Assembly (NCBI GenBank): GCA_965202725.1
Contig: OZ241845.1
Span: forward strand, 665,437-729,436
Direction: 5' to 3'
Length of the DNA: 64,000 nt
From: Candidatus Poribacteria bacterium
Lineage (GTDB): Bacteria; Poribacteria; WGA-4E; WGA-3G
Positions 12,889 to 52,962 of this stretch are shown here, one piece after another (the first letter of the stretch is position 1; each line of letters opens with the position of its first letter). The translations under genes were made by a program, and so were the position numbers. Under the pieces are notes generated by a model that was not told the DNA's origin, did not search any database, and saw nothing but the letters and a program-made list of their open reading frames with translations.

Positions 12889-12906
12889 AAGGAAACGGAG
12901 ATAGCA

Positions 12907-14991: not shown

Positions 14992-15321
14992 CTTTGATCA
15001 CAAGGATCAGAGGTGTCCATACCGACACAACTGCCCCTGCCAATTCCTTGACTCAGTTTCTGAAATTGTGTTATAATTCTGAGACTTGAAAATATCTGTC
15101 CATTTTCTTTATTTTAAAATCTGTTTGGAAAAGATAGGACTTACGCAGCGATGCAATAAATCGCACTCCTACAAACAGATGCACCTTTCAAGGAGGTGTG
15201 TTTTTCAAAAGCAGGCCGGTTGGTAGTCGCGCAATTCGCTGGACATTTCGTAAGCCCTGAAGGATTTATGCCTAGCTCGAAAACGAGGCGGCTGATTAAA
15301 AAATGGAAGGAGCTGAACGCT

Positions 15322-37501: not shown

Positions 37502-38383
37502 TTAGCTCCAACACCCTTCTGTGTATGCTTCACGATTGAATAACTTCTGACGGAACGGTGTCGCGTTCGCCATCCATTCATCCGGGATCTCTTGGGTGTA
37601 GCGGTGAGGTGGCCCGGCTTCCTTGAAAATGTCGATGGCGAAAATGCGGTAAGGCTGCAGAGAATCCATCGGTTTCCCCTCAACTGCATGGAAAATACGA
37701 GCATTGATGTAAACCATACTTCCGGGTGGCAGCTCAAGCCTCTTTTCTTCCAATTTGCGTCCTATTTCGGGGTCGAAGTCACCTGCAAGCATCCGTTCTG
37801 GGGTTGCTTCTTTCGTCGGTGTGATCTTATGGCTGCCCGGTATCACTTTCAGGTTCCGATCGCCACGTGTGAAACCGTTGGGATAATAAAGAATTTGGAT
37901 ATAGTAGTTATCGCGTTCGGCGAGATTAAGAGGATTCTCATGTTTCCAGTGATGGTGGTCTTGATGGTATCCAAGCGGCCCGACCCCACGGGGAGCAATA
38001 TTCAGAGCAGAATGGCAGAAGTGGTATGCCTCGCCGATAGTGGCGTGTATCAGTGTCGTGATAAAGGGATCATCGATGAGCCGGTCGCTGTATTCGCCGC
38101 GATCGTTCCATGGACGAATGAAATAGGGGTCCCGTTGGTCATCGCTATTATTCAACGCTTCAAGGTACTGATGCACAGGTTCAAAACGTTGCGTGATCTC
38201 TTCAATCAACCCTTCTCGGCCGTCATCCGTGAATACGTCTGGATAGACGATGTAGCCGTCATTATGAAAAGCGTCAATATTCGCTTGTGAAGGCGAGGAT
38301 AATCGGAAAAGTGAATCGAGCTTGGAAGCATTTTTCATAGTTGCAGAATCTCCATATAATTCGCAGTGGCTTTTTAATTTCAC
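37502..38383 (-). CDS. phytanoyl-CoA dioxygenase (PhyH) family Fe(II)/2OG oxygenase
   Basis: GYHQDHHHW (H-x-D facial triad region), VIPGSH, and the overall PhyH pattern. ATGA overlap with the upstream sulfatase stop. Confidence 0.7.
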   Translation of the reverse strand: MKLKSHCELYGDSATMKNASKLDSLFRLSSPSQANIDAFHNDGYIVYPDVFTDDGREGLIEEITQRFEPVHQYLEALNNSDDQRDPYFIRPWNDRGEYSDRLIDDPFITTLIHATIGEAYHFCHSALNIAPRGVGPLGYHQDHHHWKHENPLNLAERDNYYIQILYYPNGFTRGDRNLKVIPGSHKITPTKEATPERMLAGDFDPEIGRKLEEKRLELPPGSMVYINARIFHAVEGKPMDSLQPYRIFAIDIFKEAGPPHRYTQEIPDEWMANATPFRQKLFNREAYTEGCWS

Positions 38384-39852
38384 ATCCGGCTGTGCCCCTC
38401 TTCCTCAAACTTCTGCAGCAGTGCTGTTAGTCTTCCCACAATCTCTGGATACGTTTCCCACACATTGTTTGTTTCCGTCGGATCATCATAAATATGATAG
38501 AGTTGCCCTGGCGTATCAGGATTGGGTCCGCCGTCACGGGGTGGAGGCCATCCCCCAGAACCTTGCGTTCCTAAAATGAGTTTCCAATCGCCGTGTCGGA
38601 TAGAAAAAACGCCGGTGCTGGCGTGATGCACGATAGCGGAGCGTAACGGTTGCTCTGTCTGCTCGCCTAACAGCGTGGGTAAGATATTACAACTATCCTG
38701 CCCGGCCGTTTCAGGAACTTCTCTTCCGACAATAGCGGCGCATGTCGCCATCAGGTCGGTGAGGCAAGTCAGGGCGTCGGTCTCAGTATTCGGTGCGACC
38801 ACACCGGGCCAGCGTGCAATCAGCGGTTCACGGTGCCCACCCTCCCAGATATGTGCTTTGTAGCCGCGCCAGTCACCGCAAGATTTATGGTCGTAGAGAT
38901 GATAGGGCATGGGACTGTTATCCCCTTGAATCCGATCGCCGGGCAGTGCTCCGTTATCGCTTGTAACAAAAATGAGTGTGTCGTCTGTTTTACCAGTGCG
39001 TTCCAATGCATCCATGACTTCACCGACCATCCAATCGACAAGCCAGACGAGGTCGCCGCGAGGGCCAGCCCAGCTTTTACCGCGCGCAAAGTCAGGCACA
39101 ACTGCTTCCGTACACGGTTCGTGCGGTGCTGAGGGGGTGAGATATAAGAAAAAGGGAGCATCGGCTTCGGCTTGTCCTTCAATATATTCGACGGCTTTCT
39201 GTGCGATAATAGGGTCGGCATCCTTGTGCTCCCATCCTGGGACCATCATGCCGCGGCGACTCGTAAATTCTGCCACTTCATGATAGGTGCTTGGAATTTC
39301 GACAAAGGCATCGTTCTCAATAAAACCGTAAGGGGGTTGGCACGTCGGACAACCGGCGTTTCCATAGAAGTAGTCAAACCCAATAGCAACAGGCCCCCCG
39401 GTGAGGGGTGCGGTAAAGTCTATGTGTTCCTCCAACTCGCGTTCAGCGTTTGACCAAGGGAGCGGGGCATTGAAGTCAAAATCGTAGCCGGGGACTGTTG
39501 AGAATTCGAGTCCTAAATGCCATTTACCGACACAGGCGGTGTTGTAGCCAGACGCTTTCAGGAGCCCAGCGACCGTCAGGCGTTCGCGTTCAATAAGGGG
39601 TGGTTCGTATCCGTAAAGCACACCGTGTTTCAGGCGGCTCCGCCAGCAGTAGCGGCCGGTGATGACTCCGTACCGCGTAGGTGTGCAGACAGCGGAGGGG
39701 GAATGGGCATCGGTGAAGCGGATTCCTTCTTGCGCGAGCTTATCCATGTTCGGGGTCGGAATCTTTGAATCTGGGTTATAGCAACCGACATCGCCGTATC
39801 CCATATCGTCTGCCATGATGAAAACAATATTGGGCAAGTTACGTGTATGCAT
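38380..39852 (-). CDS. arylsulfatase-family sulfatase (canonical FGly motif)
   Basis: IVFIMADDMGYGDVGCYN, and CTPTRYGVITGRY (C-x-P-x-R plus TG). Confidence 0.85.
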   Translation of the reverse strand: MHTRNLPNIVFIMADDMGYGDVGCYNPDSKIPTPNMDKLAQEGIRFTDAHSPSAVCTPTRYGVITGRYCWRSRLKHGVLYGYEPPLIERERLTVAGLLKASGYNTACVGKWHLGLEFSTVPGYDFDFNAPLPWSNAERELEEHIDFTAPLTGGPVAIGFDYFYGNAGCPTCQPPYGFIENDAFVEIPSTYHEVAEFTSRRGMMVPGWEHKDADPIIAQKAVEYIEGQAEADAPFFLYLTPSAPHEPCTEAVVPDFARGKSWAGPRGDLVWLVDWMVGEVMDALERTGKTDDTLIFVTSDNGALPGDRIQGDNSPMPYHLYDHKSCGDWRGYKAHIWEGGHREPLIARWPGVVAPNTETDALTCLTDLMATCAAIVGREVPETAGQDSCNILPTLLGEQTEQPLRSAIVHHASTGVFSIRHGDWKLILGTQGSGGWPPPRDGGPNPDTPGQLYHIYDDPTETNNVWETYPEIVGRLTALLQKFEEEGHSRM

Positions 39853-39893
39853 TGCAGGTTCCTGATGGGCGTTGTGGTGACGAGGTATCGCGC

Positions 39894-41063
39894 CTATGAT
39901 AATTTCGCCTTTAGCTCCGCGAGGTCCTTGTCAATTGAAGCTTCTTTCGCATAACTCGAAAATTCGCGCTCTGATTTCGTATCTTGATATGCGATATCTA
40001 TTTCAGCGGCAGCTTTTGCCAAAGTCGCTGCCTCGGTTGCGTCCTGCTCCATCTGCGTAAGGGTCTCAAACGCCTTATTGGCTTGTATCTCTTTTAACAT
40101 CTCACGGAGGTGTGCTTGGGCATCAATGTTTCTATGTTGGGCGACGACAACAGCTTTTTTTCCTTCAGCTTCCGTCAGCTTCTGTTGAAGATGTTCAAGA
40201 AGGTTGCTGAGTGCCTGAACGATCTGTTTCTGTTCTTCCCACTGCGCTTTGTACTGTTCGGCTAATCGTTGGTACTCATTTCGTTTTTCTAAGTCTTCAC
40301 GTGCCAAATCTTCGCGTTGCGCTTTAAGAGAGATAACAGCGCGTTCTTGCCACCGTTCTGTTTGGGCGAGAGCACCTTCATAAGCGTTCTGAAATTGTTT
40401 TTCAACGCCTATGGAAGCGTTAACCTTCTCCTGTGCTTCTGAAAGCCTATTTGTCATCTCAGCGATGGCGTTCTCTAAAACCATTTCCGGGTCTTTGGTC
40501 TCAGCCTCAACCGGCTCCGGTTCGGGATCATATTTTACAACAACCGTCTCTGCTAACTTATCCCCTATCCGCTGCCGTTTTTTTCCGAATGTCCAAAAGG
40601 AATCCAAAGGTTGAAAGATTGATGTGAATCGGCGAATGAAAGAGTCCTTAAGCGTGGCGGGTTTGCCATCTTTCAGTCGAAGAACTTGTAAGGATAGCAG
40701 TTTTTTGCCAATTCCTTGTCCATTTCTGAAACCGTCCATAAAAAATAGCCCCGCTGTCCACAAAGCAATACCGCTCAAAGTTAGGGGCTGGAAATCGTTA
40801 GCCGCCCACGATCCGAAAAGGAAAACTAAAAACAGCTGGGCGGCAACCAATGCCCTTATTGGTAGTTTGGTTTTCGTCCCAAATATCCACAGAAGTGCGC
40901 TGAACAATCCAATCAGGATAGGCCCAAAACTCACTGCTTCCAAGATCAGAAACAGAATCAATAGAAAACTCGCGAGGAACATTCCGTCTATGAAAAACGC
41001 AAACAGCCGCGCAAATCGGGATCCTAATTTAAATGCTTTACCTGCAATTTTAATTGATTTCAT
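39894..41063 (-). CDS. RDD-family membrane domain fused to a PspA/IM30-like coiled-coil domain
   Basis: N-terminal RFARLFAFFIDGMF...GQGIGKKLLSLQVLRLKDG (RDD pattern) with hydrophobic helices. C-terminal roughly 200-aa PspA-like heptad-rich region (EMVLENAIAEMTNRLSEAQEKV... REDLAREDLEKR...). Confidence 0.55.
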   Translation of the reverse strand: MKSIKIAGKAFKLGSRFARLFAFFIDGMFLASFLLILFLILEAVSFGPILIGLFSALLWIFGTKTKLPIRALVAAQLFLVFLFGSWAANDFQPLTLSGIALWTAGLFFMDGFRNGQGIGKKLLSLQVLRLKDGKPATLKDSFIRRFTSIFQPLDSFWTFGKKRQRIGDKLAETVVVKYDPEPEPVEAETKDPEMVLENAIAEMTNRLSEAQEKVNASIGVEKQFQNAYEGALAQTERWQERAVISLKAQREDLAREDLEKRNEYQRLAEQYKAQWEEQKQIVQALSNLLEHLQQKLTEAEGKKAVVVAQHRNIDAQAHLREMLKEIQANKAFETLTQMEQDATEAATLAKAAAEIDIAYQDTKSEREFSSYAKEASIDKDLAELKAKLS

Positions 41064-41199
41064 TCTGAAAGGCCCTTATGTTTGTAGGAGCTTGGCAGGA
41101 CAGATGTATGTTCTCTCCTTAATAGAGTCTACAACGGACAAACGGGATAGTTAAATTCTGTGTACGCACTGTTAAAATCTTAAGATTGTCGATCCAGTA

Positions 41200-41805
41200 T
41201 CATGCTTTTTGCTCTCTCATACTTGAGAGAATCCCCAGGATCTTATCGCATTGTGCAATTGTATAGATTGTCATATCAATATATAGTTTTTGTTTGTTCA
41301 ATTTGAGAAAGATCCAGTCGGTACCGGAGGTCGTTGTGCCGTAAACACACGAGATACTATTCCCTTTTTCAGCATTAAAACGTTGTGCGGCGAGCATTTC
41401 AGCAACGCACTGCCCTAATCCAAGTTTCACATCGGCATTCTTTGCCTCCACTAGAGCTATAACGGGTGCCTCTACGAAAAATTGCTCTGAGGACAAGCTT
41501 ATCAAGAAGTCACAGACACCGACTAAACCGCTTTCCGGATCAACGCTGAAGTCGATACCCGAAAAGAGGCTGATGCGGCGGTCGAAGTGTTCGCGAAGTT
41601 CAAACAAGATTCCCGTCACAATCAGTTCTGATCGCGCTTTCTCTGTTCCTATGGCAACGGCTAAAGGGACTTTTTTTCTTAATTCCTCCGTGAAATGTGA
41701 CCTCGGCGTTACAGGCTCTATTTTAGAAAACAGGTCTATCGTCTGAACGGTTTCTAATTTAAACACCGAGCGAACCGATTCGAAAGTCCAGTTGCTGTAA
41801 GCCAT
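41200..41805 (-). CDS. hypothetical protein with PD-(D/E)xK nuclease-like motif
   Basis: GVCDF ... VIALVEAK (D...E-x-K spacing typical of the restriction-endonuclease-like fold). Otherwise unassignable. Confidence 0.35.
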   Translation of the reverse strand: MAYSNWTFESVRSVFKLETVQTIDLFSKIEPVTPRSHFTEELRKKVPLAVAIGTEKARSELIVTGILFELREHFDRRISLFSGIDFSVDPESGLVGVCDFLISLSSEQFFVEAPVIALVEAKNADVKLGLGQCVAEMLAAQRFNAEKGNSISCVYGTTTSGTDWIFLKLNKQKLYIDMTIYTIAQCDKILGILSSMREQKA

Positions 41806-41866
41806 CGGATAAACCTCCTAAGTGCAAATAGGCTCATATACCGGCCCCGGTCCAACCAATCATAGG

Positions 41867-42925
41867 TCATAAGGTTGGCACGGTCACTGCGACCTCGCGT
41901 CCACCGGCGTTTGAGGAATCAATCACGCCTTGAATGATAACGTTGGTGAGCATCACGCCATACGGGTCAATCGGTGCGGGTTTGCCTTCAGGGACGGCAT
42001 CAACAAACGCCTTATCTTCTGCGTGGAATACATCGACGGATTCAAATTCAGTGAACGTTTGATCAAAGATGTCGCCATCTTTGTCGCCGTAAACCCGGAC
42101 CCCCTCTTCTGGTCCGCGTACTTCACTGATCCCAAGGCGGAGTCCGGCTTTTTTACCGAGGAAAATCGTTCCACCGAGCGAATCCATGTTCATGCACCAG
42201 CATGTCTTAAAGACCATGCGTGCGCCATTTTCAAAGACGACCCAACCGACTCCAAAATCTTCAACTTCGGTATTCTTAAGGGCTGGGTTCCAGGTATTGT
42301 GGAGACTGAGGTAGTTAGAGGTAATGCCGGACACGGCGACAGGTTTCGGGTGTCCCATTAGATAAAGCGCGGTATCTAAGGCGTAGACCCCGATGTCCGC
42401 AGATGCCCCTAAGCCTGCTGTCGCTTTTACGATAAAACTCCCCCCCGGATTTCCACGGCGGCGATCCGCAACCGTTTCGACGTAATAGATGTCGCCTAAG
42501 GTGCCAGCGTCAACGATTTCTTTTGCCTTAATAACTTGCGCGGAATATCGGAGTTTGAGTCCGATCATTAGGATTTTATTGTTTGCTTTTGCGGCGCGCC
42601 ACATTGAAGCGGCGGCATTGAGGGTCGCCTCCATCGGCTTTTCGCAGAAGACGTGTTTACCCGCGTTGAGCGCCGCGACAGTCGGTGCAGCATGCACCCC
42701 TGTTGGTGTACAGACATAAACCGCCTCAATCTCGTGCATTTTGAGCATTTCGTTGTAGTCCGAAAATGTGCGCTTGATGCCCCAACGCGCTGTCGCACGT
42801 TCGAGATTCTCGGGTACGAGGTCCGCTGCTGCGACTATTTCTGCGCCATCAATGTTAGCGATGGTGCCACAATGTGCCTGCGCGATGCCCCCTGCGCCTA
42901 TTAAGCCTAATTTAACTGTTCTCAT
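41867..42925 (-). CDS. Gfo/Idh/MocA-family NAD(P)-dependent oxidoreductase
   Basis: N-terminal LGLIGAGGIAQAH Rossmann motif, EKP motif (CEKPMEA), and the characteristic C-terminal alpha/beta domain. Confidence 0.8.
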   Translation of the reverse strand: MRTVKLGLIGAGGIAQAHCGTIANIDGAEIVAAADLVPENLERATARWGIKRTFSDYNEMLKMHEIEAVYVCTPTGVHAAPTVAALNAGKHVFCEKPMEATLNAAASMWRAAKANNKILMIGLKLRYSAQVIKAKEIVDAGTLGDIYYVETVADRRRGNPGGSFIVKATAGLGASADIGVYALDTALYLMGHPKPVAVSGITSNYLSLHNTWNPALKNTEVEDFGVGWVVFENGARMVFKTCWCMNMDSLGGTIFLGKKAGLRLGISEVRGPEEGVRVYGDKDGDIFDQTFTEFESVDVFHAEDKAFVDAVPEGKPAPIDPYGVMLTNVIIQGVIDSSNAGGREVAVTVPTL

Positions 42926-43585
42926 TTTGGTCTCCTCATTAGGATATGTTTCCCCTTGATTTTATCCTATTTGTTTTCTATAAGTCAAGGAAAATTTCTG
43001 GATCGTTTTACAACGGCACTCAATTGTCAAAATTGTCTGAATCGCAGACTCTCTCTGATGACGCGGATTAGGAGCCTTTTTTGCGAAGTTCGCCTAAGTT
43101 CTGCCAGAATACAATAGGTTCATACGAAAATACGGAAATAGATCGCCATCGCATCCCTCTTATCTTGTTTGATTATCGTCACAGCCTAACACTTTTCTTG
43201 ACGCACAAAGACAGGTACGCTATCCTAAAGTGAAATCCATCTTAGCCCCTAAGGATACACAGATGACCTGTTCAAGATTTCAACACAAACACTTCGTCAA
43301 AAAGGTATTGAACGCAACAATTGCCGGATGCGCCATTGGTTTGGGCGTTTTAAGCGCAAGTCTCTTATCGTTTCAAAGAGCACAGAGAGGGTGAACTTGA
43401 CAGGCACTTTATTTGCGAGATGTCGCGGCAACGGGGATGTGTTGGATATCCTAAAAATCGGTCTGGTTTCCCAACTAAATAGCATTATTTAGACGAAAAC
43501 CCTCTAATTTTTTATCCTTTCGGGGTTTTGGGGTGCACGAGGGATATAGGGCTACCACCTGTTAACAACGATAGGTGTGGCGAAA

Positions 43586-43632
43586 GCGTCTTGGGCTGCA
43601 CTTGGGCTGCACTTGGGCTGCACTTGGGCTGC
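43586..43632. repeat. 11-bp tandem repeat (CTTGGGCTGCA) x4 immediately downstream of the AlbA-like gene stop
   Basis: cttgggctgcacttgggctgcacttgggctgcacttgggctgca. Confidence 0.7.
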
Positions 43633-43635
43633 ATC

Positions 43636-45129
43636 TTAATTTACTTTTTCTAATTTCAGATGTGCGAGTGCTGTTTTTCCTTTGTCTGTCAACCGGTATT
43701 GCTGCCGTGGACTCCTGCGTTTCTCCGGTAGCGTATATTCGAGGAGCCCTTCCGCCAAAAGGTCTCGGAAAATCTTTTTCAGTTGACCGGAGACTTCCTT
43801 CTGTCCTAACTTCTTGGACAACTCGGTTCTTGACCTCGGCCCATCCGCCAGTGAGCGTAGCACGCGCGATGTCAGATCTCCGGGGAGTGATTCGGGTTGC
43901 AGCTTTCCCTGATCTGGAGGTGTGTCACGCCAAATCGTTGTCTTAAATCCACCGCTAATCGTGAATTCAGGCTCGGGTAAGCCAGCCCCACGGCAACGGT
44001 GGATCATGTCTAACGTTCCCGTTCCTATCTCTTCAATGTATTGGGCAAAGTATAAAGATCGAGCAAGCAACGGATTATGAGGCACTGATGCATGCGTTTC
44101 TCGCAGGAGTTCTAAAGTCAAGGAAGGAGGCAATGTGCCGGGATTCAAGACCTCCAGCCGATCGCGAAAAAGCATCACCTGTATACTGGCATCATGCGTA
44201 TAGTCCCGATGTGCGACGGCGTTGACGATGGCTTCAGTTACAACTTCTTTCGGGATTTCATAGGCGACAGGTGCTTGCACACTTTCCGCGCGTGTGCCGA
44301 CTGACAGTGCGATTTGGCTCAGCACGAAATTCACGGCTTGATCAATGAGTTGAAACGCCGTTCCCTCGTAGATCTGATAAGACGGGATCGGTTTCGCAAC
44401 CTCGTTTCCGTGATAGTGGGCACACTTCACGCATGAGGACATCAGAAATCGCTGTGGCATCTGACCGAACAGTAACACTGCCGCGTTCGTGGGACACCCC
44501 GCGTTTAGGAGATTGAGATGAACCAATAGCTCTTCGGGGGGCACATCTTCGTTAAGTGGAAAGGTTCTGGCACGCCGTGCTGTTCGGATAAACCGACGCA
44601 TCTGATGGGGATCCAGATCATCCAGCGATGCTCTTGAACAGGCGGACGCGTCAAAAGGTTCAAAACGGATGAGGCCTTTGCTCTTCAGGTATTCCACTAA
44701 CGCTGCGCGGAGGGCTGCTACTAATTCTTCGGGGGTGTTGAATCGTTTTCGGATAAGTCCGGATTGTGCGTTACGAAGGAGGGCCTGCACCTTCGGGTGC
44801 CGGAGACTGTCATCTGTCCCTTTTACGAAAATCAGACGGGGTCTGCCGGAAAGTGTTGCCTGATCAAACTCCCTCTCTGTCGGTGATATGCCGTCTGCAT
44901 CCTCTGAGCCGTAGTCGTTGCCAAACAACCCCACATAAAGATCGGACTGCTCAACCTCACCGAGATAGAGGGCATCGGGGCGGCGGTCTGACGCTGGAAC
45001 ATCTTCAAATAGAAAGAAATCAAAGAACCCTCGCATCAACGGGTCGCTACGGAGATAGTTGCGGAGTGCCTCGCGTTCCTCTGCGAATTCTTTTTGAACG
45101 CTGCTGATAAAAATACGAATCGGGTTCAT
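43636..45129 (-). CDS. DUF4062-like N-terminus + AlbA_2-like DNA-binding + HATPase_c_4-like domain protein with C-terminal winged-helix (Schlafen/AlbA-type putative regulator/ATPase)
   Basis: N-terminal IFISSVQKEFAEEREAL (DUF4062-like). Central region similar to the divergent-AAA/AlbA_2 and RecG-C-terminal-like HATPase_c_4 family (NAVAHRDY, LPEPEF). C-terminal LTDKGKTAL winged-helix-like tail. Family assignment is from memory of the domain consensus. Confidence 0.5.
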   Translation of the reverse strand: MNPIRIFISSVQKEFAEEREALRNYLRSDPLMRGFFDFFLFEDVPASDRRPDALYLGEVEQSDLYVGLFGNDYGSEDADGISPTEREFDQATLSGRPRLIFVKGTDDSLRHPKVQALLRNAQSGLIRKRFNTPEELVAALRAALVEYLKSKGLIRFEPFDASACSRASLDDLDPHQMRRFIRTARRARTFPLNEDVPPEELLVHLNLLNAGCPTNAAVLLFGQMPQRFLMSSCVKCAHYHGNEVAKPIPSYQIYEGTAFQLIDQAVNFVLSQIALSVGTRAESVQAPVAYEIPKEVVTEAIVNAVAHRDYTHDASIQVMLFRDRLEVLNPGTLPPSLTLELLRETHASVPHNPLLARSLYFAQYIEEIGTGTLDMIHRCRGAGLPEPEFTISGGFKTTIWRDTPPDQGKLQPESLPGDLTSRVLRSLADGPRSRTELSKKLGQKEVSGQLKKIFRDLLAEGLLEYTLPEKRRSPRQQYRLTDKGKTALAHLKLEKVN

Positions 45130-45472
45130 TGTTTAGTCGTAGCCTTCTGTATATGAAGAAAAATATTACGGAACTGCGATACATACCAGAGGCGCGTCCC
45201 CTTTTTTGTGTTTTTCAGCTCTATATCTCCATGTTTATAGGGCATTGCCCCAAGTTGCTGCCTACAAGATTTTTAGTTATGAGGTTTCCTGCTGATACGG
45301 TGTATTGCGCCTTCCTGCTCTCTACCCAGCCTGATTACATTTCATAACATGATACCGCCTTGACCAAAACCAAATATCTTCAATATATTATGCCACAATT
45401 GCCTATGTAGGACAAGCAGAAAGTGTTCTCGGAAGACCGACCTATTTATCGTCAGAATCAGGCTCCCTCTTC

Positions 45473-45584
45473 TGTAGCATAGCCTGTTAGGCTGTGTCGT
45501 AGCCTGGTTTCCTATTAGACTGTGCAGTCTTCCGTAGCATAGCCTGTTAGGCTGTGTCGTAGCTTGGTTTCCTATTAGGCTGTG
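45473..45584. repeat. two tandem ~51-bp direct repeats of the TGTAGCATAGCCTGTTAGGCTGTG family (each with internal half-repeat)
   Basis: Copy 1 at 45473-45524 and copy 2 at 45534-45584 are about 95% identical. Located in the intergenic space between the methyltransferase and AlbA-like genes. Confidence 0.65.
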
Positions 45585-45607
45585 GCACGCGGAAAACCAG
45601 TTTATCG

Positions 45608-48600
45608 TCAAAATAAACCCTCTTCCCCGCACAACACCCTATCAATCTCCGCCATAACCCCAAGCGTCCCCGCCACAGACATCAAAACCCAACGATACCG
45701 ACGCACATCTTCATGACGCAACACCTCACCCCGACGATCACGCAACCACTTCTCACACACCCGATACGAACCAACCGCATATTCCCAGACAGCTACAGGC
45801 ACATCCGTGAAATACTGAGACGCATTTATCCAAACACGCCCATCCACATAACGCACACGCCCGACTACACCATCCCCCTCCCCCTCAAAACGATGCACCG
45901 CGGATGTGCCGACTCTCGTAGGAGCGACCTCGCGGCGCCCCCCGCTTTTTAAAAGATGTCCCTCAATCAACTGCTGCCCTAACCTTGCAAGCGTGTGGAA
46001 CTGTGCTGCGTTTTGGGGTAAAGGGATACGCGGGAAGTCGTATTTCAGGAGATCGTAATACCGTTTGCGGTAGGTTGGGCTATACAGAATCGCATAGCTA
46101 TAGGCGAGGATGTTCTCTGGTGAAACGTCTTCTGGGAGATGATAGGGTTCAACCTGTGGGAGTGCCAAGGTCTCTGAAAGTGCTGTGAGAAAAGCAGGCT
46201 TAAAATTGAGGGAGCGCTCTGATGAGAGCCCCAACTCCTTTGGGTTTGAATGCAGATAGAGCGGGAAAATATGCCCAGATTCACTGGCTCTGTTTGAAAT
46301 ATAACAATTTTCTGTGATTTTGTCGGTTATCAAAGCATGTTGCCAAGTTGGGCTTGTGACGATACGGCAAACACAAAGGGCAAGGTTTCCTGTAAGTAGA
46401 TGAAACATAACCTCTCCGCGAGGCGTACAGTGGAATCCACGCGATCTTCCAGTATAGTAGGTCCAACGTGTATCGAATGGACGATAGAGAATTGGCTTTA
46501 TATGTTGTTCGGAATCGGGATGGTTGCGGACATCTGCTTGGGCAGAATGAATTCTCCAATCTCGAGTATCCCTTGGTAATCTGTATTTTTCCCGCGCCTC
46601 GTCTACAGACAGTGAAACAAAATGAGTTACCGTTTCTCGGATTTCCTCAGGAGTTAGATGAATTGTGAACCTATCTCGTCCAGTGACAATCCCAACTTGA
46701 CCTGCTTGAAAAATGTCAGTAACTTTCCATCCAGTTTCGTATTCCACACTATAGTCTGTCGCTTGAGGCACAAAGAGGTAATGGGATGCTGTCGGTTGTA
46801 ACTCATCCCATTCCGTGGATCGCACATCGGTTCCAGAAAGTGTTTTATATTTCTCTTCTCGGGCCCCCCACACATCCGCGTAGTAAACCTCGGCAGGTGC
46901 AGGATCATCGCTTGCTTTCACACACAATAGGATACAGACCCCTTGGGAAATGTCAAAGACGTTTTCATCAACCTGCCCTATAGGAACTGCTTCCACTCTT
47001 CTATTACTCCCATGTAGGTTCAGCAGATAGATAGTGGTGAAACTGTCTAATAGGCTTTTCCGCATGCCACGAAACATGGGACCATCAAGGAAACTGTTGT
47101 TGACAATATAACCGATAACCCCTTCACCATTTTTGTCAATTCGCCACTGTGCCCATCGCGTAAATTTTACATAATCTGCTTGAAGGGCTTTTGAGTTTCT
47201 TTCCCCGAGGGGTTCTCCATCTATTTGCCTGTAATCCTCAATGAGCTGTCCGATAAAAGTTAACTCTCTACCTATGCGACTTGGATTCGCAGAATCTTGT
47301 GGATACGGCGGATTGCCGAGAATGACAAGCAGGGGTTCGTCACGCTTCACCTGTAACGCCGCATTCGCCTCATCAGAGATAAACCCCGCAAAAGGCAACG
47401 AAGGCTGCATCTCCAAGGGCTGCTCCAACGTATTCGTCAGGTAGATACGCAGACGCTCACCACCACCCCACCCTTGCGATTCTAAGAACAAACCCAACTT
47501 CAGATGTGCAATCGTATACGGCGCAACCAGCAACTCAAACCCGAAAATACGGTTGACCAAAGCACCGTTGACATACTGCCCCCATTCCGCCGCGCCATAG
47601 GTGCGCGTCACAGACACCTGAATATGCTCCAATACCTTCAACAGAAAACCCCCAGTCCCCGTCGCAGGATCAAGAATGAGCGTGTCGTCATCAGCAAGAC
47701 CGTCAGGTTTATTCAATTGTGTCTTAAGTAGGCTATCCACGGATCTGACGATATAAGAGATAACCTGTGGCGGGGTGTAGTAGACACCTCGATCCACGCG
47801 TCGCTGTGGAGCGTATTCTGCGAGGAAGGTCTCGTAGAAATGGATAACAGGGTCTTCACGTTGAGCCGCCCCCGAAAACGCAGTGCGGAGCAGCTCGGTT
47901 GGAACATTTCCCAGCAGTGCCACAATCTCGTCCAGAATATAGGTGACGTTTGCCTCAAGTCTCGGTGAGGCGATATGATGAAAGAGCTCAATGAGAAACG
48001 GATTAGATCGCGGAAGTGCCGCCGATGCCGTGTGTCGCGAGAAGTGCGTTGCAGTCGGGAGGGTGCAGCGTGCTGCGAACAATCCGTAAGCGAGCGTCTG
48101 TGCATACATATCTGCGAAATCGTCGGGTGTCAATGTAGACACGAGGAATTCCTTGAATGCCGAGAACATCCGATACAGATCGCTGTTTGCATCGGTGAGG
48201 GTTGTGGCGACTTGTGTCTGTAGCTCCCGCGTGCGTCTGGCGAGGTATCCCGCAAGTGCCTCTGGCGTGGCGATCTGGATGGGTTCAGCGTTGACGAACC
48301 GTTCCAAGAGCGTCTCTAACGCAGCGGGGCTATCGGCGACATTCGCCTCAGCCCGCAGCCTGCCCTCTGTCCACAACTGGAAATCCACGAAGTTCGTCAG
48401 GATGAAGTTATCCAGGTTTTGGATAAAACGTTGGTTCTGTTCTTTGGCGTGTCCTGTGAGTCTGTTGAGGTCTCTGCCGTATCTTTCTGCCTCAATATAC
48501 CCAATCGGCAGCCCCGCGTCCATTGCAACGAAGTCGGGTCTGCCGATCTGGGCTAACCTTCTCGGTTCTTGGACGAACCGGAGGGTATTTCTATCAAAAC

Positions 48601-48865
48601 AGGCAACTGCGAGTTTCTCGAGGAAGGCTTGGAGGTGCGGGAATAGCGAAAGTTCCGGCGTTGCCGCCGCACTCGCCTGGGTGCCCCGGATACTTTGTAG
48701 GTAACCCTCACAATGGCTTTCAAAGTTCATATTCTGCTTCGTAATCGGGCTTACAAAGCCCTCCCACAATTTATTTATTAGGAAGACTGTGATATCAGTG
48801 CGAAAAAAATATTGAATGAGATTCTCTAACCTTTGCATTATACGTTTTATAGGTTTTTTGTGCAA
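45608..48865 (-). CDS. MmeI/Eco57I-like (type IIG/IIL-like) gamma-class N6-adenine DNA methyltransferase, 1085 aa, with degenerate N-terminal PD-(D/E)xK-like region and C-terminal target-recognition region
   Basis: Motif I LILDPATGTGGFL upstream of motif IV VILGNPPYPQ (gamma order). Conserved FADMYAQTLAYGLFAAR helical-linker motif seen in MmeI/PglX-type enzymes. N-terminal RPDFVAMDAG...IGYIEAER has D...E-x-E rather than D...E-x-K. Confidence 0.7.
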   Translation of the reverse strand: MHKKPIKRIMQRLENLIQYFFRTDITVFLINKLWEGFVSPITKQNMNFESHCEGYLQSIRGTQASAAATPELSLFPHLQAFLEKLAVACFDRNTLRFVQEPRRLAQIGRPDFVAMDAGLPIGYIEAERYGRDLNRLTGHAKEQNQRFIQNLDNFILTNFVDFQLWTEGRLRAEANVADSPAALETLLERFVNAEPIQIATPEALAGYLARRTRELQTQVATTLTDANSDLYRMFSAFKEFLVSTLTPDDFADMYAQTLAYGLFAARCTLPTATHFSRHTASAALPRSNPFLIELFHHIASPRLEANVTYILDEIVALLGNVPTELLRTAFSGAAQREDPVIHFYETFLAEYAPQRRVDRGVYYTPPQVISYIVRSVDSLLKTQLNKPDGLADDDTLILDPATGTGGFLLKVLEHIQVSVTRTYGAAEWGQYVNGALVNRIFGFELLVAPYTIAHLKLGLFLESQGWGGGERLRIYLTNTLEQPLEMQPSLPFAGFISDEANAALQVKRDEPLLVILGNPPYPQDSANPSRIGRELTFIGQLIEDYRQIDGEPLGERNSKALQADYVKFTRWAQWRIDKNGEGVIGYIVNNSFLDGPMFRGMRKSLLDSFTTIYLLNLHGSNRRVEAVPIGQVDENVFDISQGVCILLCVKASDDPAPAEVYYADVWGAREEKYKTLSGTDVRSTEWDELQPTASHYLFVPQATDYSVEYETGWKVTDIFQAGQVGIVTGRDRFTIHLTPEEIRETVTHFVSLSVDEAREKYRLPRDTRDWRIHSAQADVRNHPDSEQHIKPILYRPFDTRWTYYTGRSRGFHCTPRGEVMFHLLTGNLALCVCRIVTSPTWQHALITDKITENCYISNRASESGHIFPLYLHSNPKELGLSSERSLNFKPAFLTALSETLALPQVEPYHLPEDVSPENILAYSYAILYSPTYRKRYYDLLKYDFPRIPLPQNAAQFHTLARLGQQLIEGHLLKSGGRREVAPTRVGTSAVHRFEGEGDGVVGRVRYVDGRVWINASQYFTDVPVAVWEYAVGSYRVCEKWLRDRRGEVLRHEDVRRYRWVLMSVAGTLGVMAEIDRVLCGEEGLF

Positions 48866-48957
48866 GGTATTTTGTCCGGGCTATCACAGAAATAGATTGA
48901 CACGATTCAGATGCCATGCTATATTTCAAACAGATGACTTACTTTCAGGAGGCTATC

Positions 48958-49998
48958 GTGAAAGCTGCACAATTTTACGGCGGAAAAGACATCAGGGTTG
49001 AAACCGTACCAGACCCAGCCCCTGAGGAAGGACAAGTGCTGGTGCAGGTAGAAGCGGCGGGCATCTGTGGCAGCGATCTGCACGGATACCATCATCAACC
49101 GGAGAAACCTTTATCCCCCCGTATCGGCGGACATGAGTTGATGGGGGAAATTGTTGATATAGGTAGGGGGGTCAGAAACTATGACAAAGGGGCCCGCGTG
49201 GCAATTGAACCGATTAGTCCATGTAACGACTGCCCGGAATGCTATAATGGTAACTACAACATCTGTGGGAATTTGCGGCATGGCGGTGGCGGTTTTGCAG
49301 AATTTACGGTCGCACGGACACCAAATGTCTACGCCTTGCCAGAGAGCGTCTCGGCTGAAGGTGGTGCCCTGGCAGAGGTTTACGCCGTAGCGGTTCATGC
49401 CGTCAACAGAGCGATGGTGTCACCGGGGGATCGTGTTGCTATTATCGGTAGCGGCCCTGTGGGATTGACGATTGCGCAGGTGGCAGATGTCGCTGGCGCA
49501 ACTTCTATCGCTGTGATCGGAAAGCCGGATGGGCCGATACAGATCGCGCACGAAGCAGTAGGTGCCATGCCTATCCATGTGGATAAGACGGATGCTGTCG
49601 AGGCAGTTATGGACTGGAGCGCCGGCAGAGGCGCGGATGTTGTTTTTGAAGCCGTCGGAGGCACGGCGAATACGCTGGAACAGGCGACGGCGATTGCGTC
49701 AAAACGCGGTACAGTTTGTATGGTCGGTGGGCATCGTACACCACTCACCTTTACAGAACGATTCGCTCGGAGTCGAGAGCTTACGGTCGTCTGGTCGTTT
49801 TGCTATGGCAGGCGCGGCGGAAAGACGGAGTTCCAAGTGGCTATAGACCTACTCGCCACCGGTAAACTCGATCCGAACCCGTTGGTTACACATAGGTTTA
49901 ACTTGGACGATATTAACGCGGCATTCGCTGTCGCCGCAGGACGCGATGAACACGGGTCCGTTAAAGTGCTTGTGACACCCAACAATTACGGAAGGTAA
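48958..49998 (+). CDS. zinc-dependent medium-chain alcohol/polyol dehydrogenase (MDR family)
   Basis: GICGSDLH, GHE, C-x2-C-x2-C-x7-C structural zinc site (CNDCPECYNGNYNIC), and GSGPVGL Rossmann motif. GTG start 48958 with AGGAGG 5 nt upstream. The ORF is open from 48916. Confidence 0.8.
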   Translation: MKAAQFYGGKDIRVETVPDPAPEEGQVLVQVEAAGICGSDLHGYHHQPEKPLSPRIGGHELMGEIVDIGRGVRNYDKGARVAIEPISPCNDCPECYNGNYNICGNLRHGGGGFAEFTVARTPNVYALPESVSAEGGALAEVYAVAVHAVNRAMVSPGDRVAIIGSGPVGLTIAQVADVAGATSIAVIGKPDGPIQIAHEAVGAMPIHVDKTDAVEAVMDWSAGRGADVVFEAVGGTANTLEQATAIASKRGTVCMVGGHRTPLTFTERFARSRELTVVWSFCYGRRGGKTEFQVAIDLLATGKLDPNPLVTHRFNLDDINAAFAVAAGRDEHGSVKVLVTPNNYGR

Positions 49999-49999
49999 A

Positions 50000-50635
50000 A
50001 TGGAAAAACTCAAATTGCTCATATTTGTAGGAACAGAAGGCATCTACCACGACCATGCAGGAAACGGGCAGTTCTTGACAGCAATGATCAACGATACTGA
50101 CGATATTGCAGCGGATTTCTCGCAAGACTACGACGCACTTGCTGATGGACTTGGTGGATACAACACCGTGCTTTTTTACACCGATGTCGGGGAACTCACT
50201 ACAGCACAAAAACGGGGGTTGCTCAGTTATATCCGAACGGGAGGCGGCTTTTTCGGGCTGCACACTGCGGCGGCATCGTTTCGGGAATCTGAGGGGTATC
50301 ACAGTATGCTGAATGGATTTTTCGATGGACATAGCCCGTATATGAATTTCACGGTTAACGTGAGTGACAAGGAACATCCGATTACCGAAGGGTTAGGCGA
50401 CTTTGAGGTGACGGATGAACTGTACTATCTCAAGCACAATCCTGCTGTGTCGCATCATTTGATGCACGCTTATGACGAGACGAAAGATGAGACGCACGTT
50501 ATGGCGTTCCACCATACGTACGGCGAGGGACGGGTTTTCTATTTTGCACTCGGGCACGATATGGCTGTACTTGAAAATCCAAGTTTTCAGACGGTTATTC
50601 GCCGAGGCGCGCTATGGGTGGGGAATCGGCCTTAG
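50000..50635 (+). CDS. ThuA-family (trehalose utilisation-like) protein
   Basis: GGGFFGLHTAA, EHPITEG, DELYY, and YFALGH motifs. Confidence 0.7.
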   Translation: MEKLKLLIFVGTEGIYHDHAGNGQFLTAMINDTDDIAADFSQDYDALADGLGGYNTVLFYTDVGELTTAQKRGLLSYIRTGGGFFGLHTAAASFRESEGYHSMLNGFFDGHSPYMNFTVNVSDKEHPITEGLGDFEVTDELYYLKHNPAVSHHLMHAYDETKDETHVMAFHHTYGEGRVFYFALGHDMAVLENPSFQTVIRRGALWVGNRP

Positions 50636-50729
50636 GTGTTTTAGGCTAATGAAAGGGCTTCTCTCACACTCCCTTGCCTTTAGGCGGGGGCCATCCCCGT
50701 AACGCTCGTGCCGACGGCAAAAAAAAGCG

Positions 50730-50758
50730 TTGACAAAAGGGGGGGGGGCTGGTATAAT
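50730..50758 (+). promoter_or_regulatory. perfect-consensus sigma70 promoter TTGACA-17-TATAAT with a 10-G homopolymer in the spacer
   Basis: TTGACA at 50730-50735, spacer aaaaggggggggggctgg (17 nt), TATAAT at 50753-50758. Confidence 0.5.
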
Positions 50759-50767
50759 TATGGCTTC

Positions 50768-50812
50768 AGGTTGAGGCAAGCTTTGCGAACATAGCGTCTC
50801 TGCTATGTGCTT
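50768..50812 (+). mobile_element. nested imperfect palindrome resembling an IS200/IS605-family left-end subterminal hairpin
   Basis: gaggcaagc-tttgcga-acatagc-gtctct-gctatgt-gcttgcctc. Lies about 85 nt upstream of the tnpB-like remnant. Confidence 0.35.
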
Positions 50813-50897
50813 GCCTCCCACTCATCTGGGGATAAAACACTTGCTACTTGAGAGCCCATGATGAAAGACACATAAAATAGCCTTACGGCCCAACCGT

Positions 50898-51146
50898 GTG
50901 CAAATTGCGTGGTTTTATCAGCAATGCGGGTATGCGAGGTTCGCCTATAACGCTGCGTTGGCTGATTTTAAATCGGATATAAAGTTATCTATGTATGACT
51001 TAAACAAACGCTTTAATCAGAGGAAGCAAGCGTTTGATTGGACGAAAGTACAAGATCAACGTGCTGCGATGTATGCAGTGCATCATCTGGGGCGTGCGAT
51101 AGACAACTGGCAAGCGAAGCATGCGAAGTTTCCGAAGTTCAAGTGA
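50898..51146 (+). pseudogene. tnpB: N-terminal fragment (about 80 aa) of an IS200/IS605-family TnpB (OrfB) gene, truncated
   Basis: QQCGYARFAYNAALADF ... MYDLNKRFNQRK ... AIDNWQAKHAKFPKFK matches the conserved TnpB N-terminal region (C..RFVYN..L ... FPKFK). The ORF stops after 82 aa. No RuvC or Zn-finger part is present. Confidence 0.5.
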
Positions 51147-51342
51147 GAGTTGCAGTTTTTGCATTTATATCGCTGTTTATCGATGGTGAACCCATTTTTT
51201 TCTTGACGAATTTCCAGAAAAGTGTTAGTACTGTGACGATAATCAAACAAAGATGTGATAAGAGGGAGATGAGGGAACCCTATCACATCAATTTACCGAA
51301 AACCCTCCTTTTTTTACACTGATAAGAAAAAAGGAAATGTGA

Positions 51343-52179
51343 ATGAATAAAAAAGTTTTGTCTAATGGGAAAACGCTCTCGGCGCATATAACGACCCCGA
51401 AAGATAATCGTGAAATGGTGCTCATCCCCGCCGGTGAGTTTGAGATGGGTAGCAACGATCCGGAAGCTTTTAGGGATGAAAAGCCTGTCCACACTGTGTT
51501 TGTGGATGCATTTTACATGGATACCCATGAGGTGACGAATGCGGCTTACCAAAGATTTGTGTTGGCGAATCCAGAGTGGCAGGAGGATCGTATTGATAGG
51601 AAATACCATAATGGAAATTACCTAAGACTTTGGGATGGAACCACCTATCCTGAAGGTAAAGGGGATCATCCTGTAGTGTATGTATCGTGGTATGCTGCGA
51701 TGGCGTATGCGCAGTGGGCAGGCAAACGTTTGCCTTCTGAGGCGGAGTGGGAGAAAGCTGCGCGTGGTGGGTTGGTAGGTATGAAGTATGCGTGGGGTAA
51801 TGAGATCTCATCGGCTGATGCGAACTACGATGAGAATGTAGGGGATACGACGGTCGTAGGTGCCTACGCTGCGAATGGTTATGGTTTATACGATATGTCG
51901 GGTAATGTGTGGGAGTGGTGTTTGGATGCGTGGGATGAGGATTTCTATTCTCGTTCTCCTGGTCGCAATCCGCTCAGTGGTGTGAATAGTATGTCGATGG
52001 CGGATGTAGGCTTAATATTAGATGACTACTTACTTGTTAAGTCATCTCGTGTCTTGCGGGGCGGCTCCTGGTTCAATAATACACGGAACGTTCGGGTCGC
52101 TAATCGCCGCCTCTATAGGCCGGCGGGTACGACCGACATCGACGGTTTTCGTTGCGCGAGGGCTGCTGTAACTCCTTAA
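51343..52179 (+). CDS. formylglycine-generating enzyme (FGE/SUMF1) family protein
   Basis: MVLIPAGEFEMGS, HPVVYVSWYAAMAYAQWAGKRLPSEAEWEKAARGG, GNVWEWC, RVLRGGSW, and GFRCAR motifs. Confidence 0.85.
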   Translation: MNKKVLSNGKTLSAHITTPKDNREMVLIPAGEFEMGSNDPEAFRDEKPVHTVFVDAFYMDTHEVTNAAYQRFVLANPEWQEDRIDRKYHNGNYLRLWDGTTYPEGKGDHPVVYVSWYAAMAYAQWAGKRLPSEAEWEKAARGGLVGMKYAWGNEISSADANYDENVGDTTVVGAYAANGYGLYDMSGNVWEWCLDAWDEDFYSRSPGRNPLSGVNSMSMADVGLILDDYLLVKSSRVLRGGSWFNNTRNVRVANRRLYRPAGTTDIDGFRCARAAVTP

Positions 52180-52569
52180 CACTTAACAACTTAACCCCTT
52201 ATACCCCCACATCTGCAACGCAGACTAGGTCTGATTAATACTTAACTGGTAATTAATTTGAGGGTTTCAGAAACCAAATAATGTTTTCGCTAAATTTTTG
52301 GAGCACGCGTACGGGTTGGATAACCCAACCCGTACTACGGTTGGCCCCAAGTTTTCAATTACAAAAGAGCAGTATATCATCACTTAAACGAAAACCCTCA
52401 AATCTCCATCGATCAAACAAGTTAATCAAGCATTACCTCCCCAATTTAAAACCAATCGACTTTTTAAACAATCTGATCTTGCATCAGATATCGCGACTCG
52501 AGTTAAGCAGAAATTACCGGAGTTAGTCGTCAGTTTGTACCACAAGGGAAAACATCCTTATGTAAAGAT

Positions 52570-52911
52570 ATGCTGATCCGTTGGGTTAAAGAGGGGCGGC
52601 AGCCGGGGTTAAGCCTTATTGTTGCTACCCAACAACCCTCTGCAATTGATTCTGAATTGCTTTCGCAGTGTGACCTAATCATGGCACATAAAATTACAAC
52701 TTGGGATGATATCCATGCACTTGATCGGTTGAGTGCGACCTACATAGAAGGCGACTTGAAAGCATACATCCGACAACTTAACCGCCGGGGTGAGGTACTG
52801 CTTATTGATGGCGAAACCGAGACTGTCTGTACAATCCGAGTTAGACCGAGACGCAGTACCCACGGAGGTGCTGAAATCCAAGAGACAACAGCGAGACGTT
52901 CTTTTTTCTAA
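52570..52911 (+). pseudogene. C-terminal fragment of a HerA/FtsK-like (DUF87-type) ATPase
   Basis: GLSLIVATQQPSAIDSELLSQCDLIMAHKIT resembles the conserved C-terminal block of HerA-like ATPases (LATQRP..ID..VLSQ..T.I..R). No upstream coding continuation. No Walker A present. Confidence 0.4.
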
Positions 52912-52918
52912 CCTATTG

Positions 52919-52945
52919 CACAACCTAACAGGTTATGCTACAAAA
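52919..52945. repeat. single copy of the dispersed repeat (CACAACCTAACAGGTTATGCTACAAAA)
   Basis: Identical to the core of the 30842/30916 copies. Confidence 0.6.
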
Positions 52946-52962
52946 CCGTTACCAACTCACGT

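Follow-up and report, generated by a model that had tools for sequence, protein, structure and literature searches.

A Type IIG restriction-modification gene and a mobile DUF4062-GHKL-winged-helix gene, probably joined by insertion, in a Candidatus Poribacteria genome

We analyzed a 64-kb stretch of contig OZ241845.1 from a Candidatus Poribacteria bacterium (the window, whose positions are used as coordinates throughout), in which the gene for a large DNA methyltransferase (MTase, used here as the name of this protein) lies next to the gene for a 497-amino-acid (aa) protein, P2. A first-pass annotation made from the sequence alone had raised the possibility that the two constitute a restriction/defence module of two genes, minimal or new. 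Our comparisons point instead to two autonomous single-gene defence elements joined by insertion and not to a co-evolved pair, a reading to which we assign a probability of roughly 60%. The MTase adds a member to a known family and shows a clade-wide active-site variant. The novelty of P2 is a DUF4062 domain, predicted to be a nicotinamide adenine dinucleotide (NAD+) glycohydrolase (NADase) effector, placed on the chassis of the proteins named Schlatpases.

Conservation of the gene pair and probable insertion of P2

Both open reading frames (ORFs) proved real as first described, lying on one strand with a spacer of 478 bp between them. The conservation of their neighbourhood, a check proposed in the first-pass annotation, was assessed with tblastn in two sets of homologue loci (loci and contigs compared with the window carry L-numbers). 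The P2 set comprised 80 loci from different GTDB species with P2 relatives 57-77% identical, mostly from Candidatus Poribacteria, with others from Latescibacterota, Thermodesulfobacteriota, Nitrospira, Gammaproteobacteria and further groups. An MTase homologue was found within 10 kb at none of these 80 loci and, conversely, a P2 relative at none of 80 metagenome loci encoding MTase relatives. The pairing is not conserved.

The closest MTase homologues, in L163 (83% identity) and L164 (79%), stand in the same gene order as in the window (MTase, GFO_IDH_MocA, RDD/PspA, sulfatase, PhyH, aldo-keto reductase), and P2 is missing from that site, where 433 bp or, in L164, a HicB-like gene is found instead. 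Nucleotide alignment places the breaks of synteny with both loci at 45602 and 42997. The P2 gene and its short flanks recur on L002, a plasmid-like contig with a Rep3 replication gene; nucleotide homology ends at the cassette borders, and the MTase lies outside them. Moreover, full-length P2 homologues (52-54% identity) are present on Legionella plasmids beside parB/rep genes, with no restriction-modification (RM) genes nearby. Because the pairing is absent from both sets, syntenic loci lack P2, the cassette is shared with L002 and copies occur on Legionella plasmids, P2 appears to be mobile and autonomous, a unit of one gene that inserted next to an MTase gene of vertical descent. Since it occurs alone on plasmids, it should be able to work without an RM system.

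Domain content and predicted function of P2

Pfam identified DUF4062 (PF13271) at P2 residues 5-91 (77.2 bits against a gathering cutoff of 24.7), HATPase_c_4 (PF13749) at residues 314-394 (6e-19), and a C-terminal winged helix at residues 422-489, with matches to Fic-like_C (3e-8) and PadR (5.8e-5). All three parts had been named in the first-pass annotation. An AlbA_2-like region had also been listed there and has to be withdrawn, as SLFN_AlbA_2 (PF04326) was not detected in P2 even at E<=10 and DUF4062 holds that position. The same model scores 1.9e-11 in a paralogue (L053:69-1493) composed of SLFN_AlbA_2, HATPase_c_4 and Fic-like_C. BLASTP aligned P2 residues 148-489 with residues 108-467 of this paralogue (30% identity, 2e-36), leaving the N-terminal domains unaligned, and the GHKL region of P2 is homologous to residues 108-360 of this Schlatpase. 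Because the C-terminal halves align while the N-terminal domains differ, DUF4062 replaces AlbA_2 and is not added to it. P2 can accordingly be described, as far as sequence comparison goes, as an apparent effector-swapped Schlatpase composed of a putative NADase, a GHKL ATPase and a winged helix-turn-helix (wHTH).

Three preprints of 2026 demonstrate that DUF4062 ('NIR') is the TIR-like NADase effector of several systems directed against phages, namely Swarozyc, Evangelion, Vulcan, Vesta and NIR-Avs2, with the catalytic glutamates KpSwz E97, Eva01 E87 and Vulcan E98. P2 matches the KpSwz chain (PDB 10wc) at E=2e-6, and the similarity stops at about P2 residue 202. Because D71 and W176 of the native protein are residues 58 and 163 of the chain, the chain numbering is offset by 13, and native E97 corresponds to chain position 84, an Ala in this E97A construct. 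That position aligns with Glu87 of P2, within S-P-T-E-R-E-F. Among 138 members of the P2 family, E87 is kept in 133 of the 134 sequences aligned here and the adjacent E85 in 116; E85 was considered as the catalytic residue and rejected, since the chain numbering makes E87 the equivalent of KpSwz E97. The N-terminal domain of P2 may therefore be proposed as an NAD+ glycohydrolase effector with Glu87 as its probable catalytic residue.

The GHKL residues E299, N303 and H307 are kept in 137-138 of the 138 family members, and this region of P2 matches PDB 3lmm. A Foldseek search with the AlphaFold2 model of P2 retrieved 3lmm, nucleoside-deoxyribosyltransferase-like (NDT) folds and TIR folds. PADLOC gave partial matches of P2 to models associated with prokaryotic Argonautes (pAgo), consistent with a relation of the Schlatpase type.

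P2 shares with Swarozyc (KpSwz), Evangelion (Eva01), Vulcan, Vesta and NIR-Avs2 the N-terminal DUF4062 TIR-like domain with S-x-T-E-x-E-[FY] conserved at its active site, a single-gene organization, a variable C-terminal sensor or auxiliary part, and an occurrence on plasmids and in defence neighbourhoods. Unlike these relatives, which carry a portal-binding AUX, HEAT repeats or STAND-TPR in the C-terminal part, P2 has GHKL and a winged helix there, and homology to the AUX portal sensor of Swarozyc is absent from it. The searchable text of the 2026 DUF4062/NIR papers contains no mention of the DUF4062-GHKL-wHTH architecture or of its embedding in Type I RM operons.

The combination of SLFN with GHKL has been named 'Schlatpase', and such genes were noted in Type I RM operons of Poribacteria; in SLFN-pAgo, the binding of ATP to the GHKL domain leads to a tetramerization that assembles the Schlafen nuclease (10.64898/2026.05.29.728809). 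P2 resembles the Schlatpases (SLFN_AlbA_2, GHKL PF13749 and HTH; COG2865) and the SLFN-pAgo RzAgo in its homologous GHKL-linker-wHTH half, which combines an intact ATP site with a C-terminal HTH, in the tetrapeptide-repeat linkers of its family and in the residence of the latter in Poribacteria Type I RM operons. It differs in having no SLFN_AlbA_2 and a DUF4062 NADase in place of the Schlafen nuclease, and its predicted output would be NAD+ depletion and not tRNA cleavage.

The linker that precedes the winged helix (at about codons 405-420) carries in-frame 12-nt tandem repeats of 2-12 copies in several P2 homologues (L021:11210, L073:11214, L057:8805). These repeats encode tetrapeptides such as QPES and TPEV, vary in copy number and have counterparts in paralogues of the Schlatpase type; in the window copy the unit occurs once.

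The P2 family and Type I RM operons

The 120 best P2 homologues are at least 74% identical to it and have a common three-domain make-up, and 337 representatives of 50%-identity clusters match P2 residues 1-320 at E<=1e-30. Longer members of the family are tandem module fusions, including DUF4062-GHKL joined to SLFN_AlbA_2-GHKL. We clustered the ORFs around the 80 P2 loci, checked the representatives by Pfam, and found as recurring neighbours an 815-aa HsdM, an HsdS of about 415 aa, an HsdR of about 1040 aa and a YgjP-like metallopeptidase. At least one Type I RM gene is a neighbour of P2 at 57 of the 80 loci, which confirms the earlier placement of the second protein in a family from defence contexts. 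At 36 of the 80, hsdM/hsdS lie upstream and hsdR downstream of P2 on one strand, in the order hsdM/S, P2, hsdR, ygjP. Restricting the count to the 58 loci that extend 5 kb or more on each side leaves 45 with Type I genes and 33 in the canonical order. The conserved partner of the P2 family is the Type I RM system, not the Type IIG enzyme of the window.

No hsd genes or remnants were found around P2 in the window, where P2 is not embedded in a Type I RM operon as its homologues are, and no fusions of P2 with Hsd subunits (a Rosetta-stone link) were found among the family members. The hsdS-hsdR gap also holds genes for DUF1828, an AAA_21 ATPase and small unknown proteins. An abortive-infection gene inside an hsd operon is known from PrrC/EcoprrI, where it backs up restriction. 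The P2 family resembles PrrC in the placement of an effector gene within the hsd operon, and differs from it as an unrelated protein with another effector chemistry.

The family is large, spanning many phyla and Legionella plasmids, and its usual place is within Type I RM operons. It leads us to predict that the control module of Schlatpases has a second output, the depletion of NAD+, and it makes a concrete candidate for abortive infection linked to RM systems in sponge symbionts.

Several observations on these loci stand on their own. The hsdS-hsdR region of the Type I RM operons in Poribacteria and other bacteria (L003-L082) is variable, with up to eight genes in L005 (L005:131-15482), and contains DUF1828, an AAA_21/AbiEii-like ATPase and several unknown small genes. 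The YgjP-like metallopeptidase always comes after hsdR, and HsdM is unusually long (about 815 aa). Among NC_006365.1 and related Legionella plasmids (H3-H9), those of the pLPP type, of about 130 kb, have the P2 homologue split into two annotated ORFs, a 'DUF4062 domain-containing protein' and an 'ATP-binding protein'; on the other Legionella plasmids it is intact and always adjoins parB/rep.

The large protein as a Type IIG enzyme

The ORF at 45608-48865 on the minus strand encodes 1085 aa from a TTG start and is the longest possible frame. The length of 1085 aa given in the first-pass annotation thus stands for the maximal ORF, and the gene is likely shorter. The 120 best homologues have 1024-1040 aa (query coverage 95%), the aligned ones begin at the equivalent of Met46 ('MNFESHCEGYLQ', ATG at 48730), and the extra 5' stretch contains a sigma-70-like promoter site, TGCACA-16-TATAAT, at 48864-48837. 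Because of these homologue starts and the promoter-like site, the coding sequence is likely 45608-48730, or about 1040 aa.

In PADLOC the MTase matches REase_MTase_IIG PDLC03610 at 8.7e-240 (797 bits) and PDLC03631 at 3.8e-114 over residues 60-1047. Pfam reports N6_Mtase (1e-12) and Type_ISP_C (PF18135, 5.2e-76, residues 717-1051 of the 1085-aa ORF). Among proteins of solved structure, the MTase matches LlaBIII, DrdV and LlaGI (1e-38 to 1e-41), and its sequence matches to DrdV and the MTase-TRD half of LlaGI/LlaBIII reach from 1e-38 to 1e-51 across residues ~295-1000. The first-pass annotation had picked out the motifs LDPATGTGGFL, GNPPYPQ and FADMYAQTLAYGLFAAR, which are indeed present in the translation, and LDPATGTGGF and GNPPY are invariant in an alignment of 19 close homologues. 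The protein thus combines a full-length match to the Type IIG family profile with gamma-class motifs I and IV followed by a C-terminal target-recognition domain (TRD). At E<=0.01, Pfam gave no match in it for MmeI_N, MmeI_hel, MmeI_Mtase, MmeI_TRD or MmeI_C; a PglX model was not among its 21 PADLOC matches, and the PADLOC scan of the window's 43 other ORFs found no pglZ, brxC or other BREX model.

Because of these PADLOC, Pfam and structure matches, together with the lack of MmeI and PglX models and of BREX genes, we assign the large protein to the single-chain Type IIG enzymes, apparently of a DrdV/Type-ISP-like MTase-TRD lineage, and neither to MmeI proper nor to BREX. Its earlier description as an MmeI/type-IIG-like N6-adenine methyltransferase with a motif of MmeI/PglX-type enzymes is right about a single-chain Type IIG N6-adenine RM enzyme and imprecise in its MmeI/PglX label, for which no model matched. 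The canonical BREX partners had already been reported as lacking, and the 64-kb window indeed has no match to pglZ or brxC; the large protein is not part of BREX.

The MTase resembles DrdV (PDB 7LO5) and the MTase-TRD half of LlaGI/LlaBIII in having a gamma-class N6-adenine MTase followed by a Type_ISP_C TRD in one polypeptide, and it is also close to DrdV in length (a single chain of about 1030 aa). It departs from DrdV in its N-terminal ~290 residues, which have no sequence match there, from the Type ISP enzymes LlaGI and LlaBIII in the absence of a helicase-like motor, and from both in a nuclease motif that reads D...E-x-E and not D...E-x-K. MmeI (Type IIG/IIL) has the same order of parts, namely an N-terminal PD-ExK nuclease, helical connector, MTase and TRD, and belongs to a separate sequence family by Pfam at E<=0.01. 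BREX PglX is likewise a large adenine methyltransferase of the gamma class whose specificity region is C-terminal; the window MTase differs from it by its nuclease-type N-terminal domain.

In another Poribacteria genome (L165:2323-7428), DarT/Macro (DarTG-like), WYL and AAA_35 genes lie beside an MTase homologue in a defence-island-like setting; the window has a dehydrogenase gene where L165 carries this neighbourhood upstream of the MTase.

A clade-wide variant of the nuclease motif

The nuclease-like motif of the MTase reads GRPDF...GYIEAER, with Glu in the column where relatives carry Lys, so that the residues corresponding to the canonical PD...(D/E)xK triad are D66, E80 and E82 (residue 1 being M46 of the 1085-aa ORF). 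P65, D66, E80, A81 and E82 are invariant in the 19 close homologues. We compared these columns in a MAFFT alignment that included 77 more distant metagenome homologues: 55 distant homologues carry D/E/K in the catalytic columns, and D/E/E is confined to the clade of the window, where all nine members have it, three of them being 46-47% identical to the window MTase. Within the clade, conservation amounts to 75% in the N-terminal domain, 78% in the connector, 84% in the MTase domain and 71% in the TRD. Because D/E/E is fixed across the clade and the N-terminal domain is conserved about as much as the TRD and the connector, the Lys-to-Glu change is a fixed, selected clade variant and not erosion. 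The first-pass annotation had called the motif (D...E-A-E-R) degenerate; it was correct that the canonical Lys is replaced, and the invariance of D/E/E across the clade leaves the term 'degenerate' unproven.

Glu at the Lys position is native and functional in BamHI, OkrAI and BtsCI, and the substitutions EcoRI K113E and EcoRV K92E nearly abolish cleavage (PMC3025578). By analogy with BamHI, the D-E-E site probably still binds metal and probably still cuts, and the intact motifs suggest that the MTase still methylates. A Type IIG clade with a fixed D-E-E site provides a natural test of the BamHI-type Glu variant in single-chain RM enzymes. A PDB profile search with the close-homologue alignment gave a match that did not reach the N-terminal domain of the MTase.

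One subgroup of MTase homologues (L093, L102, L111, L141, L143, L147, L152, L157, L159 and L161) is about 1100-1150 aa long and has another N-terminal domain without the PD...ExK motif columns.

Repeats of the locus

The first-pass annotation had described the pair as bracketed by repeats, with two direct repeats of ~51 bp in the spacer and a four-fold 11-bp tandem repeat after the second gene. The repeat pair in the spacer exists, with a unit of 57-60 bp (94-95% identity between the copies), and the 11-bp tandem is exact. The bracketing is not borne out, since the spacer repeat is a dispersed intergenic element and the P2 cassette has the 11-bp array as its own 3' end.

The 14-nt motif CACAGYCTAAYAGG matches the window nine times against 0.09 expected, always in intergenic sequence and five times outside the spacer. 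It marks a dispersed intergenic element of about 28 nt, with the core GCACARCCTAACAGGYTATGCTACAAA and a 5-bp hairpin, found in the window at 24932, 30371, 30842, 30916, 52919 and 45483-45584; this element, which resembles repetitive extragenic palindromes (REP), is also present in another Poribacteria genome (L004:1563-1610). Folding of the spacer repeat gave z = -0.75, with no significant structure, and a structured-RNA reading was not borne out; Rfam had no match over 42800-49000. A 96-aa ORF in the spacer (45342-45632) was treated as spurious, as it has no Pfam match, overlaps the REP-like repeats and falls within the lineage-specific segment.

The 11-bp array recurs 3' of the 88%-identical P2 homologue on L002, and we therefore count it as part of the P2 cassette. 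Of 79 homologue loci, 24 carry an 11-12-bp array with TGCAG as its core behind the P2 stop codon, and almost all of these belong to the clade of at least 69% identity; the unit sequence varies by locus and some arrays are palindromic. Such an array could serve as an operator, an attenuator or a recombination junction. At five loci (among L002-L034), the first array unit is identical at 11-12 of 13 positions to the linker-coding sequence 88 codons upstream. Short repeats flanking the wHTH segment were considered as a feature of the family and rejected, because they were confined to these five loci, the window showing 9 of 13 identical positions against a background of 8.

Proposed mechanism and alternative readings

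In the scheme that we propose, the MTase gene would have been inherited at a fixed chromosomal position in its lineage, and its product would combine restriction and methylation in one polypeptide, with a PD-(D/E)xK nuclease, a helical connector, a gamma-class MTase and a Type-ISP-like TRD. P2 would have arrived on a cassette of about 1.66 kb with its own upstream region. An infection cue would be sensed through the C-terminal half of P2, the winged helix acting as a nucleic-acid-binding or sensor part. The GHKL domain may bring about ATP-dependent oligomerization or assembly, by analogy with the Schlatpase module of SLFN-pAgo; assembly would render the NADase domains active, and the ensuing NAD+ depletion would abort the infection. 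In its usual place within Type I RM operons, with hsdS on one side and hsdR on the other, the P2 family may form a second line of defence.

That the MTase and P2 work together as a minimal or new two-gene restriction/defence module might be argued from their co-orientation at a distance of 478 bp and from the strong tie of the P2 family to RM systems of the same N6-adenine MTase class (Type I, at 57/80 loci). However, adjacency recurs at none of the loci in either set of 80, P2 is missing from the exact site in the syntenic relatives, the cassette shared with the plasmid-like L002 does not include the MTase, and REP-like repeats and a separate upstream region stand between the genes. We consider such a module very improbable, and a two-gene system that is not real has no place in lists of candidate defence systems. 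The large protein by itself may be an endonuclease-dead orphan or epigenetic (BREX-PglX-like) methyltransferase that keeps its N-terminal domain for structure or DNA binding, a possibility that we take seriously and yet find doubtful. The loss of cleavage in EcoRI K113E and EcoRV K92E (PMC3025578) gives weight to the replacement of the catalytic Lys by Glu, and the stability of the gene at one chromosomal site fits a domesticated methylase. Against this, D66, E80 and E82 do not vary even in clade members as distant as 46% identity, the N-terminal domain that holds them matches the TRD in conservation, BamHI and OkrAI naturally have E-x-E in their active sites, and a PglX-like role finds neither a model match in the protein nor pglZ/brxC in the window.

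For P2, the alternative is that it mainly regulates by binding DNA, the expression of hsdR or of RM genes for instance, or that it is a nucleoid or plasmid-maintenance factor, and not a cell-killing NADase. The winged helix, the position just upstream of hsdR at 36 loci, the conserved TGCAG-core arrays (possible operator sites), the place beside rep/par modules on plasmids, the very high sequence conservation and the label 'transcriptional regulator' given to homologues in source annotations are all in keeping with it. We nevertheless judge it unlikely: nearly every family member keeps the catalytic Glu and the ATP-site residues of the GHKL domain, the N-terminal slot is exchangeable with a Schlafen nuclease effector in the manner of effector swapping typical of defence proteins, and those DUF4062 proteins that have been tested to date act in defence by depleting NAD+. 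Something of a long shot is the further idea that the DUF4062-GHKL-wHTH family is a guard dedicated to RM systems: it would watch the state of Type I (perhaps also Type IIG) enzymes, or their inhibition by anti-restriction proteins of phages, and respond with ATP-gated NAD+ depletion; the TGCAG arrays behind the stop codon would be wHTH operator or tethering sites coupling P2 to hsdR expression, and its place beside a Lys-to-Glu Type IIG enzyme in the window would be a functional re-pairing, no accident.

Several points weigh against our preferred reading of two autonomous defence elements joined by insertion. The proposed NADase activity, ATP dependence and anti-phage effect of P2 are argued from homology throughout. 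Its AlphaFold2 model has a predicted local distance difference test score (pLDDT) of 60 and is confident in the N-terminal domain and wHTH only, leaving the domain packing without structural support; the MTase model, built with the 19 close homologues, has a pLDDT of 37 and gives none to the nuclease fold. The conservation of P2 is unusually high for a defence gene (74-88% across many metagenome-assembled genomes, 52-66% across phyla) and would fit a regulatory or housekeeping role as well. By analogy with the Lys-to-Glu losses in EcoRI and EcoRV (PMC3025578), the MTase could be cleavage-dead. Finally, the co-orientation of P2 beside an RM gene of HsdM's MTase class could reflect a loose functional preference.

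Features of the locus and other genes of the window

The coordinates of the features discussed above are collected in Table 1.

Table 1. Features of the MTase-P2 locus (window coordinates)
Feature	Position	Strand	Basis
Lineage-specific 2.6-kb segment between MTase and GFO_IDH_MocA genes	42997..45602	.	Synteny break vs L163/L164
Putative mobile P2 cassette: 89 bp upstream, gene, 74 bp downstream	43562..45218	-	90% identity over 1658 bp to L002
11-bp x4 array (TGCAGCCCAAG) straight after P2 stop codon	43590..43633	.	Tandem-repeat definition; same array in L002
P2: DUF4062/NIR, GHKL ATPase, winged helix; 497 aa	43636..45129	-	Pfam and 120 homologues
C-terminal winged helix-turn-helix	43660..43872	-	Fic-like_C, PadR
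GHKL-type ATPase region HATPase_c_4; N-box E299xxxN303AxxH307RDY at 44200-44235	43930..44682	-	PF13749, PDB 3lmm
DUF4062/NIR TIR-like putative NADase domain; probable catalytic Glu87 at 44869-44871	44680..45129	-	Pfam, KpSwz match
57-60-bp x2 repeat with four CACAGYCTAAYAGG core copies; dispersed REP-like intergenic element	45468..45584	.	Motif count
Type IIG RM gene, likely true coding sequence of ~1040 aa	45608..48730	-	PADLOC REase_MTase_IIG, Pfam, homologue starts
Target-recognition domain Type_ISP_C	45713..46717	-	PF18135 5.2e-76; aligns to LlaBIII and DrdV
MTase motif IV GNPPY, catalytic	47303..47317	-	Translation; invariant in close homologues
MTase motif I LDPATGTGGF, S-adenosylmethionine-binding	47645..47674	-	Translation; invariant in close homologues
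PD-(D/E)xK-type motif variant P65-D66...E80-A81-E82	48485..48538	-	Invariant in 19 clade members
5' extension of maximal ORF (TTG start); leader or promoter, probably non-coding	48731..48865	-	Outside homologue coverage; promoter-like site

Apart from this pair, the window holds housekeeping genes, among whose products are sulfatases, dehydrogenases and proteins of the TPR and WD40 types. One PADLOC match each was seen among these other ORFs to PD_DExK (5.5e-47), HEAT-ARM_XIII (5.6e-39), PrimPol and PDC-M71B, none of them among the Pfam-annotated flanking ORFs (37502-42925, 48916-54291). A PADLOC 'mad2' match at 5697-6458 was rejected, the protein being a generic small S-adenosylmethionine-dependent methyltransferase. 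Three consecutive large repeat proteins, two TPR and one WD40, are encoded at 10750-17109; they are of the 'eukaryote-like' kind typical of sponge symbionts. The 1681-aa ORF at 25154-30199 contains 4.5 copies of a 264-bp tandem repeat at 27555-28744.

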